From NCBI RefSeq assembly GCF_003334335.1, contig NZ_QOWQ01000106.1: a DNA stretch of 1,460 nt; one strand, 5' to 3'. How positions within the stretch are numbered: the stretch's first letter is position 1; each line of letters opens with the position of its first letter. The translations under genes and the position numbers were made by a program. The notes below the pieces were generated by a model. The model did no database searches. It had not been told where the DNA came from and saw only the letters and a program-made list of their open reading frames with translations. Below, piece by piece: positions 1 through 1,198 of the stretch. Origin of the DNA: Escherichia coli (GTDB lineage Bacteria; Pseudomonadota; Gammaproteobacteria; Enterobacterales; Enterobacteriaceae).

Positions 1-173
1 GCCTGCCGGGGCAGCAGTATGATGAGGAGTCCGGCCTGTATTACAACCGCCACCGCTATTATGACCCGCTGCAGGGGAGGTATATCACTCAGGATCCGAT
101 TGGGCTGAAGGGGGGATGGAATTTTTATCAGTATCCGCTGAATCCGGTTCAGTATATAGATTCAATGGGACTG
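1..173 (+). other. Rhs core C-terminal hyperconserved region, including the DPIGL motif (codons at 93-107) and the terminal PxxxxDxxGL-type motif [10 protein letters not shown] (144-173) that marks the core/CT boundary
   Basis: Direct translation. GC-rich (about 60% by hand count over 1-120) compared with the rest of the window. Confidence 0.85.
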
Positions 174-632
174 GCATCAAAATATGGACACTTAAATAAT
201 GGCGGATATGGAGCGAGACCCAACAAACCGCCTACGCCCGATCCAAGTAAATTGCCGGACATAGCGAAACAATTAAGACTGCCATATCCTATTGACCAGG
301 CCAGTAGTGCGCCTAATGTTTTCAAAACATTCTTCAGAGCATTAAGCCCTTACGACTACACACTGTATTGCAGGAAGTGGGTAAAACCAAATCTGACTTG
401 TACGCCACAGGATGATTCCCAGTATCCAGGGATGGATACAAAGACAGCAAGTGATTACCTGCCACAGACAAATTGGCCAACAACTCAATTACCACCAGGA
501 TATACTTGTGCAGAACCCTATTTATTCCCAGACATTAATAAACCCGATGGGCCAGCAACAGCAGGGATAGATGATTTGGGTGAAATTTTAGCTAAGATGA
601 AACAGAGAACATCGAGAGGAATAAGAAAATGA
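1..632 (+). CDS. Rhs-family (YD-repeat) polymorphic toxin, 3' end only (5'-partial; reading frame begins at position 3; stop TGA 630-632). Encodes the end of the conserved Rhs core plus a variable C-terminal toxin domain of unknown activity. May correspond to an orphan rhs fragment such as E. coli K-12 ybfO, but this cannot be confirmed from the window.
   Basis: Frame 3 is open from position 3 to 632 with no stop. Translation begins [57 protein letters not shown], which is the hyperconserved Rhs core terminus (YYDPxxGRYxxxDPIGLxGGxNxYxY...PxxxxDxxGL). The six-frame track starts this ORF at ATG 165 only because that is the first Met; the conserved Rhs sequence upstream shows the gene continues beyond the 5' edge of the window. 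Confidence 0.92.
174..629 (+). other. Variable Rhs C-terminal (CT) toxin domain, about 152 aa, activity unknown
   Basis: Sequence after the DSMGL boundary: [152 protein letters not shown]. It is rich in Pro, Tyr and Thr, has 3 Cys, and shows no nuclease (HNH, His-Me), deaminase or ART motif that I can recognise by eye. Lower GC than the core. Confidence 0.7.
614..620 (+). promoter_or_regulatory. Shine-Dalgarno sequence (GAGAGGA) for the downstream immunity-like CDS
   Basis: GAGAGGA at 614-620, 8 nt upstream of ATG 629; lies inside the 3' end of the Rhs CDS. Confidence 0.55.
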
Positions 633-685
633 AAAGAGTTTTGTTCTTTTTGCTGATGATATTTGTTAGTTTTGGTGTTATAGCT
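629..685 (+). other. Predicted signal peptide (19 aa) of the immunity-like protein; probable SPase I cleavage after VIA
   Basis: [19 protein letters not shown] followed by DCE. No canonical lipobox, because the residue before Cys is Asp, so a lipoprotein is unlikely. Confidence 0.6.
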
Positions 686-1198
686 GATTGCGAAATACAA
701 GCTAAAGATCATGATTGTTTTACTATTTTCGCTAAGGGTACTATTTTTTCCGCGTTTCCTGTCTTAAATAATAAAGCCATGTGGAGATGGTATCAGAATG
801 AGGACATCGGTGAGTATTATTGGCAAACAGAACTGGGTACATGTAAAAATAATAAATTCACACCAAGCGGGGCGAGACTCTTAATTCGCGTCGGGTCACT
901 ACGCCTTAATGAAAATCATGCCATCAAAGGAACGTTGCAGGAGTTGATAAATACAGCAGAAAAAACGGCGTTTCTCGGCGATCGGTTTAGAAGTTATATA
1001 AGAGCGGGTATCTATCAAAAAAAGAGCAGTGATCCAGTTCAGTTGTTGGCAGTCCTTGATAATTCAATCATGGTAAAATATTTTAAAGATGAGAAACCAA
1101 CTTATGCTCGAATGACAGCACATCTCCCGAACAAAAATGAGTCTTACGAATGTTTAATAAAGATACAGCATGAACTAATTCGTAGTGAAGAGAAATAA
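629..1198 (+). CDS. ybfC: Putative Rhs immunity protein (RhsI-like), 189 aa, with N-terminal Sec signal peptide; predicted periplasmic. Resembles E. coli K-12 YbfC in length and context (tentative).
   Basis: Complete ORF ATG 629 to TAA 1196-1198 with an SD 8 nt upstream. The start overlaps the Rhs stop (ATGA at 629-632), the usual arrangement of toxin/immunity pairs. N-terminus [21 protein letters not shown] has a positive n-region, a hydrophobic h-region and a V-I-A signal peptidase I site. Position immediately 3' of an Rhs CT domain. The gene symbol rests on recalled length (189 aa) and neighbourhood (rhs fragment upstream, H-rpt transposase downstream), not on a verified alignment. Confidence 0.8.

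Follow-up and report, generated by a model that had tools for sequence, protein, structure and literature searches.

Overlapping genes are common in prokaryotes: in most groups about 15% of co-directed gene pairs overlap, and four nucleotides is the commonest length of overlap (PMC6728339). Four-nucleotide overlaps of the ATGA type can link translation of the two genes to very different degrees. Among five native E. coli ATGA pairs studied by Huber et al. 2019, three were strongly coupled, one was coupled to ~60% and one was uncoupled, and the contribution of the Shine-Dalgarno (SD) sequence to coupling differed between pairs (PMC6728339). For orphan Rhs modules, previous work indicates that immunity genes are generally expressible and that orphan toxin fragments come without initiation signals (PMC3150448; PMC3967940). 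Transcription of Rhs modules can begin inside a toxin gene. In S. Typhimurium, toxin tips and their immunity genes are transcribed from P2, a promoter within the rhs open reading frame whose transcription start site (TSS) lies 89 nt upstream of the cleavage-motif codons (PMC7043789), and internal promoters precede the autoprotease site in rhsF and rhsG of EHEC (PMC7618764).

Here we analyse a window of 1,460 nucleotides of E. coli DNA (contig NZ_QOWQ01000106.1), the whole stretch under study, in which the end of an Rhs reading frame meets ybfC. A 2014 promoter survey lists the unit "ybfOC" (PMC3946193); in the main texts of the papers examined that mention ybfC or ybfO, we found no TSS, ribosome-profiling or reporter result for the pair. 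A sequence-only reading of the window had described a toxin gene and an immunity gene joined by an ATGA start/stop overlap, and had proposed that this arrangement enforces their co-expression.

Results

The Rhs toxin frame and ybfC share an ATGA

A single frame, open from base 3, encodes the end of an Rhs core followed by a tip, and runs for 209 codons to a TGA stop at 630-632. Its first 57 residues (positions 3-173, + strand, continuing past the left window edge) are the end of the core, matching NCBIfam RHS_core at 1205-1261 of 1261 (E 8e-32) and TIGR03696 (E 2.5e-20). The core closes in a cleavage-type motif at 141-170 that ends IDSMGL, where DS replaces the canonical DP of PxxxxDPxGL; related loci read IDPMGL, IDPLGL or IDPKGL. 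The remainder (174-632, + strand) is the variable C-terminal "toxin tip", 152 aa long and closed by the TGA stop, and a core that closes in a cleavage motif, here a variant one, and gives way to a variable tip is the organization of the toxin in an Rhs toxin/RhsI pair. Three cysteines are conserved in the tip, GPATAGIDD is among its motifs, and its homologues were found only at Rhs C-termini in Enterobacteriaceae. Profile searches of the tip against Pfam, NCBIfam and the PDB returned zero matches and its AF2 model was poor (pLDDT 48) and unfit for structure search; none of them gave a clue to its activity.

Positions 626-635 read aaaATGAaaa. The start codon of ybfC (ATG, 629-631) shares bases with the stop codon of the toxin frame (TGA, 630-632), and the two together form one ATGA (629-632, + strand), as the sequence-only reading had described and as both direct reading and the ORF list bear out. 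Its placement of the SD of the immunity gene within the toxin frame holds as well. This SD, GAGAGGA at 614-620 (+ strand), falls in toxin codons for Arg-Gly, has a conserved core, lies 8 nt before ATG 629, and pairs with the 3' end of 16S rRNA at -6.0 kcal/mol, which ranks third by duplex energy among the 72 start-like + strand triplets of the window. It is as good as the SDs of rhsC (-5.2 kcal/mol) and ybfB (-6.1 kcal/mol), and is weaker than the -8.4 kcal/mol used elsewhere as the cut-off for a "strong SD" (PMC6728339). The tetranucleotide ATGA is by itself uninformative, since the window holds 22 copies against 18.5 +/- 3.8 expected; what exceeds chance is where this copy lies and how it is conserved. 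RefSeq annotation already carries the identical 4-nt overlap between the Rhs fragment and ybfC. The junction is a genuine and ordinary gene overlap, conserved in related bacteria and previously annotated.

Two further features of the base sequence can be recorded here. The strongest anti-SD complementarity of the window lies in the Rhs core, at GGGGAGG (74-80, -12.5 kcal/mol) and AAGGGGGGA (108-116, -11.3 kcal/mol), and neither site has an in-frame start codon at a usable distance. GC content is 0.55 in the Rhs core (1-150), 0.42-0.45 in the tip, ~0.31 over the junction and signal-peptide codons (526-750) and ~0.29 in the spacer between ybfC and ybfQ (1126-1425), a drop typical of toxin/immunity cassettes that are exchanged horizontally.

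ybfC starts at 629 and probably encodes an exported protein

The ybfC frame (629-1198, + strand) encodes 189 aa plus a stop. YbfC is presumably the cognate immunity protein of the tip, a role suggested by synteny and co-inheritance. Its family is narrow, comprising 21 full-length homologues at 59-92% identity in Enterobacteriaceae, and searches of YbfC against Pfam and NCBIfam gave zero family matches. An AF2 model (pLDDT 74) is a beta-sandwich with generic Ig-like matches only, and residues 1-18 fall below pLDDT 50. These first residues belong to a stretch (629-685, + strand) that is patterned like a Sec signal peptide, with a hydrophobic core and small residues at -3/-1 among the homologues, and that is followed by D and an invariant Cys21. 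This pattern suggests that YbfC is probably exported, and export of an immunity protein in turn hints that the Rhs tip may act outside the cytoplasm, in the periplasm or the envelope.

Cys21 (within window 686-694, YbfC residues 20-22) directly follows the signal-peptide-like region. Several homologues have a lipobox-like LASC, IAAC or IGAC at this site, while E. coli has IADC, which is no lipobox. From these motifs, members of the family may once have been lipoproteins, or may in part still be.

An in-frame ATG at 656-658 (+ strand), which encodes Met10, offers a second candidate start, one that the sequence-only reading had named as a possible refutation; its use would do away with the overlap. 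O157:H7-type genomes (L022 733-1303, L023 5955-6525) lend this alternative some support. There the tip sits on an intact full-length Rhs protein (WP_000015262.1) and ybfC is annotated "frameshifted": the T-run in ybfC codons 5-8 (equivalent to window 641-652) reads GTTTTGTTTTTTTTTG, in which a C to T change and one extra T give T9. The resulting +1 frameshift between 629 and 656 leaves a 13-codon ORF from the 629-type ATG, and the remaining ybfC can be reached only from the 656-equivalent ATG. Among the 21 aligned homologues, however, M1 is invariant, K2 is present in 19 and residue 3 is basic in 20 (R in 18), whereas Met10 occurs in six (the E. coli-like group and one more distant sequence) and is missing from the other 15. 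The SD before 656 reaches -2.2 kcal/mol, compared with -6.0 kcal/mol before 629; a start at 656 would cost the putative signal peptide its charged n-region and half of its hydrophobic core; and RefSeq starts ybfC at 629. We therefore reject Met10 as the normal start of this sequence and consider it extremely improbable that the real start lies at 656-658. As for the O157:H7-type frameshift, slippage on T9, use of Met10 and loss of immunity are all possible explanations. With a 70-nt junction query, 688 of 3555 genomes fell in the 95-99% identity band.

The overlap is conserved with the YbfC module

We compared 11 distinct loci from E. coli, E. albertii, Pseudocitrobacter, Citrobacter portucalensis, two Kluyvera, S. 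enterica subsp. salamae and metagenome or read-assembly contigs. In all of them, the ATGA that opens the YbfC homologue lies on the TGA stop of a homologous tip, the SD core is AGGA, AGGG or AAGGAG, and the junction reads AGAA(A/G)ATGAAA. The toxin tail RGxRK* is likewise kept in all 11, across YbfC identities of 59-92%. Seven of these overlaps stand behind a full-length or near-full-length Rhs (L004, L007, L009, L012, L015, L016 and L017, the last with its Rhs cut by the contig end).

The toxin tail upstream of the junction is variable except for Q-R...R-G-x-R-K, and the kept residues are exactly those encoded by the ribosome binding site (RBS). In the variable stretches just upstream, pairwise amino-acid identity drops to 11-25% at several positions. 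Identity at synonymous codons is 0.906 in the last six toxin codons compared with 0.69 over the whole tip, and the three six-codon windows of the junction rank 2nd, 3rd and 5th of 342. This suggests constraint on the junction at the nucleotide level, although the sequences are related by descent and the ranks are thus indicative and carry no formal P value.

Tip and YbfC are inherited together. Among the loci compared, wherever a YbfC homologue directly succeeds an Rhs frame, the tip of that frame is homologous too (63-96% identity for the tip, 59-92% for YbfC), so that the small downstream ORF is co-inherited with the tip type as in Rhs toxin/RhsI pairs. The toxin/immunity relationship put forward in the sequence-only reading fits this joint inheritance in 11 loci. 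Other Rhs/immunity junctions in the same loci are not 4-nt overlaps (-1 for rhsC/ybfB, +8, and +13 before an Ank-type immunity gene), and the EHEC rhsF/rhsFI junction is at +17. Because other Rhs toxin/immunity pairs do without it, the ATGA overlap is a trait of the YbfC module family and not a requirement of Rhs systems.

Some loci carry extra ybfC-like copies downstream of the first (L015 6545-6643, L018 1358-1456 and L012 7059-7415). In L015 and L018, the frame upstream of the extra copy has only 32 codons, the final ~16 of them left over from the 3' end of the toxin gene; the SD is kept and the start reads GTGA (GTG at L015 6640 and L018 1453). In L012, a 118-codon truncated tip precedes the extra copy and ATGA is kept. 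The immunity-only extra copies of L015 and L018 preserve the SD within ~50 nt derived from the end of the toxin gene, which suggests that the piece of toxin tail holding the RBS moves together with the immunity gene.

ybfC lies behind an orphan fragment or a full-length Rhs

The window matches the rhsC locus of E. coli, which lies between kdp and ybgA, at 100% identity. In the K-12-type order (L001), a full-length rhsC (1397 aa) is followed by ybfB, which overlaps it by one base (TAATG), then by an Rhs fragment (ybfO), ybfC and ISAs1/H-rpt remnants. RefSeq places the Rhs fragment of L001 at 8112-9632 and ybfC at 9629-10198. PGAP labels the K-12-type ybfO a pseudogene, "missing N-terminus", and the first in-frame ATG of the fragment (L001 8199) has a weak SD (-3.2 kcal/mol); judged by these features, K-12-type ybfO is without a credible translation start. 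A fragment that lacks its N-terminus and lies behind rhsC-ybfB with a shared core is the arrangement of an orphan rhs-CT/rhsI module, and it is found in the K-12-type locus and not in all carriers.

The same 1460 bases close a complete 1399-aa Rhs in strains E2865 (L019) and 300709 (L020), from which rhsC-CT and ybfB are gone. This full-length arrangement is the product expected of recombination between the main and orphan genes. A full-length Rhs stands upstream of ybfC in these two strains and in six other taxa, an orphan pseudogene does so in the K-12-type locus, and the window is 100% identical to both E. coli contexts. The module of tip and ybfC is present in 3518 of 5426 complete E. coli genomes, and the junction from ybfB to the orphan in 2649 genomes against the 3518 with the module; among 40 evenly sampled carriers, 10 are annotated with an "RHS element core protein". 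Roughly 75% of E. coli carriers thus have the orphan and ~25% the full-length gene. The upstream Rhs gene of the sequence-only reading is therefore complete in no more than about one in four E. coli carriers; in the K-12 type its place is taken by the orphan fragment ybfO.

The TAA stop of ybfB (L001 8079-8082) is in frame with the orphan Rhs fragment, which is open from the very next codon. This adjacency is probably due to chance because E. albertii (L014) is without it.

A promoter inside the rhs frame is possible

The sequence-only reading had taken the overlap to mean that ybfC has no obvious promoter of its own. This does not follow, since Rhs pairs of Salmonella and EHEC are transcribed from promoters within the rhs ORF (PMC7043789, PMC7618764). 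In a consensus scan, no sequence ahead of 629 made a convincing sigma-70 site: the scan gave five hits on both strands compared with 4.4 expected, and its two weak + strand hits (171-200 and 1056-1084) are no more than shuffled sequences yield. Positions 3-107 (+ strand) are homologous to the internal rhs promoter P2 of S. Typhimurium, with 76 of 105 positions identical, ungapped, to the 108-bp P2 (PMC7043789). The equivalent hexamers are ATGATG (~19-24) and TACAAC (~42-47) at a spacing of 17, with a TSS equivalent at ~52-55; they lack the near-consensus character of TTGACG-17-TACAAT in Salmonella. No locus of the YbfC family has the conserved T that ends the -10, and our promoter scan did not flag the site. 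Judged by these hexamers, a P2-type promoter within 3-107 is possible, and a strong one is unlikely. The comparison with EHEC rhsF and rhsG yielded no promoter that could be transferred, as the core is too diverged and the text of PMC7618764 gives no TSS coordinate.

At the other end of the window, TTTTCA-17-AATACT (1372-1400) corresponds to the RpoD "constitutive promoter" that Shimada et al. 2014 place between ybfC and ybfQ (PMC3946193). Shortly after it comes the transposase start of ISAs1/H-rpt, MELKKLMEHISI (ATG at 1424).

A hairpin over the RBS is not a conserved feature

One way in which the overlap could make coupling obligate is by unmasking: the SD would sit in a hairpin, paired to the U-rich codons of the signal peptide, and be freed only by a ribosome in the toxin frame, which would leave orphan ybfC silent. 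The minimum free energy fold of 570-690 is consistent with this, as it pairs GAGAGGAAUAAGA with UUUUGUUCUUUUU (z-score -2.3) and leaves the SD an unpaired probability of 0.01, and ancestral Salmonella under-expresses its (unrelated) orphan rhsI, making too little for protection (PMC3967940). The comparison among loci speaks against it. RNAalifold found no conserved consensus structure (-1.1 kcal/mol, covariation term -0.15), the pairing partners vary by locus, and neither the SD nor the AUG is paired in two of the loci. Furthermore, the energy needed to open -17..+13 was not above that of 200 synonymous recodings in any of the 11 loci (the fraction at or above the natural value was 0.44-0.94), and the pairing is a trivial outcome of placing a purine-rich RBS beside U-rich hydrophobic codons. 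A search of Rfam gave no match at E <= 1. We reject the RBS-sequestering hairpin as a selected feature, given the missing consensus and covariation and the opening energies that are not raised in 11 loci, and regard obligate coupling by unmasking as very unlikely.

Translation of ybfC may follow two routes

We propose that the RBS of ybfC, written into the last six toxin codons (R-G-x-R-K-stop) as the SD GAGAGGA, an A-rich spacer, the AUG and an AAA second codon, would serve in two ways. Where the upstream gene is full length, ribosomes ending the ~1,400-codon Rhs frame would halt at the UGA directly over the ybfC AUG, and those held by the SD would reinitiate, so that toxin synthesis would entail YbfC synthesis. 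This termination-reinitiation would apply in about a quarter of E. coli carriers and in Citrobacter, Kluyvera and S. salamae. The same SD would permit ordinary de novo initiation, the likely route in the K-12-type context and for the immunity-only extra copies; if the orphan upstream frame is untranslatable, ybfC in K-12-type genomes must be initiated de novo. We assign a probability of about 0.6 to this reading as a whole, in which the ATGA is maintained in evolution, YbfC is made by termination-reinitiation behind a full-length Rhs and by de novo initiation in the orphan context, and the protein is a presumed exported immunity protein. Within it, termination-reinitiation is the most likely route behind a translated full-length Rhs and translational coupling is plausible there, and coupling in the orphan context is probably idle. 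The proposal that the overlap enforces co-expression therefore survives in part: the absence of intergenic space makes co-transcription unavoidable, but enforcement at the level of translation cannot hold in the K-12-type orphan context.

The overlap could instead be a mere by-product of compaction, with YbfC made solely by SD-dependent de novo initiation and upstream translation irrelevant. An SD of -6.0 kcal/mol at 8 nt is good, well spaced and strong enough to support initiation unaided, and the overlap may thus be of no consequence. In ~75% of E. coli carriers the frame before ybfC is an untranslatable orphan, the immunity-only copies keep the SD and a GTG with just a 32-codon remnant before them, the natural RBS opens as easily as its synonymous recodings or more easily, and coupling is absent from one E. 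coli ATGA pair, bioBF (PMC6728339). Yet none of the 11 loci departs from ATGA and the TGA stop, even though tail stretches upstream fall to 11-25% identity, and most of the E. coli ATGA pairs that have been tested are coupled (PMC6728339). On balance we consider the by-product explanation possible but doubtful, and retain termination-reinitiation behind full-length Rhs genes. Even there, tight stoichiometric coupling is evidently dispensable in O157:H7, because a full-length Rhs precedes a frameshifted ybfC in these genomes.

At the opposite extreme, YbfC might be made only by ribosomes that come from a translated Rhs frame. The overlap would then be a switch that gives immunity only together with the toxin; the ~75% of carriers with the orphan would make little or no YbfC and could be killed by the ~25% with the tip on a full-length Rhs, and the T9 frameshift of O157:H7 would be a second, slippage-prone layer of control. 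We think this unlikely.

Discussion

ATGA overlaps with an internal SD rank among the commonest gene junctions in bacteria, and RefSeq already annotates the ybfC overlap across thousands of E. coli genomes. As the upstream frame is usually an orphan pseudogene, coupling should not be assumed from the overlap. Other useful outcomes of this analysis are the start codon at 629, the probable export of YbfC with its hint at a periplasmic or envelope target of the tip, and the link to internal rhs promoters, which are documented at a position homologous to the 5' end of the window. If coupling were obligate after all, it would bear on whether orphan immunity genes protect their carriers.

With the ATGA pairs that use termination-reinitiation (PMC6728339; review PMC12548453), the ybfC junction shares the tetranucleotide geometry, an SD within the 3' end of the upstream gene and the host species. 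Those of PMC6728339 are pairs of intact operon genes, whereas in most genomes the frame upstream of ybfC is a fragment without an initiation signal. With the sub-genic transcription of Rhs genes (P2 of Salmonella, PMC7043789; rhsF and rhsG of EHEC, PMC7618764), it shares in window 3-107 the homologous core just upstream of the cleavage motif. A transcript from the P2-equivalent site would carry the tip frame and ybfC jointly, although the -35 and -10 equivalents (ATGATG/TACAAC) differ here from those of Salmonella (TTGACG/TACAAT).

Our searches with YbfC linked it to no characterised immunity family, either by sequence or by a specific fold, and its export is a prediction. Periplasm-directed T6SS immunity proteins of the Tsi, Tai and Tli types carry Sec or lipoprotein signals. 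YbfC resembles them in its signal-peptide-like N-terminus and conserved cysteines, and some of its homologues have the lipobox-like LASC or IAAC. Genes for VgrG flank some of the loci homologous to the ybfC locus. K-12 is not known to have a T6SS.

The closest relatives in organization are the orphan rhs-CT/rhsI modules (Poole et al. 2011, PMC3150448; Koskiniemi et al. 2014, PMC3967940). As a putative toxin/immunity pair, ybfO/ybfC belongs to other tip and immunity families than the pairs of Salmonella. Like those modules, ybfO is a fragment of core and tip without an N-terminus, lying behind rhsC-ybfB and with a core near-identical to that of rhsC. In natural E. coli recombinants, ybfB is gone and a full-length gene ends in the orphan tip, which parallels the outcome of the evolution experiment in Salmonella.
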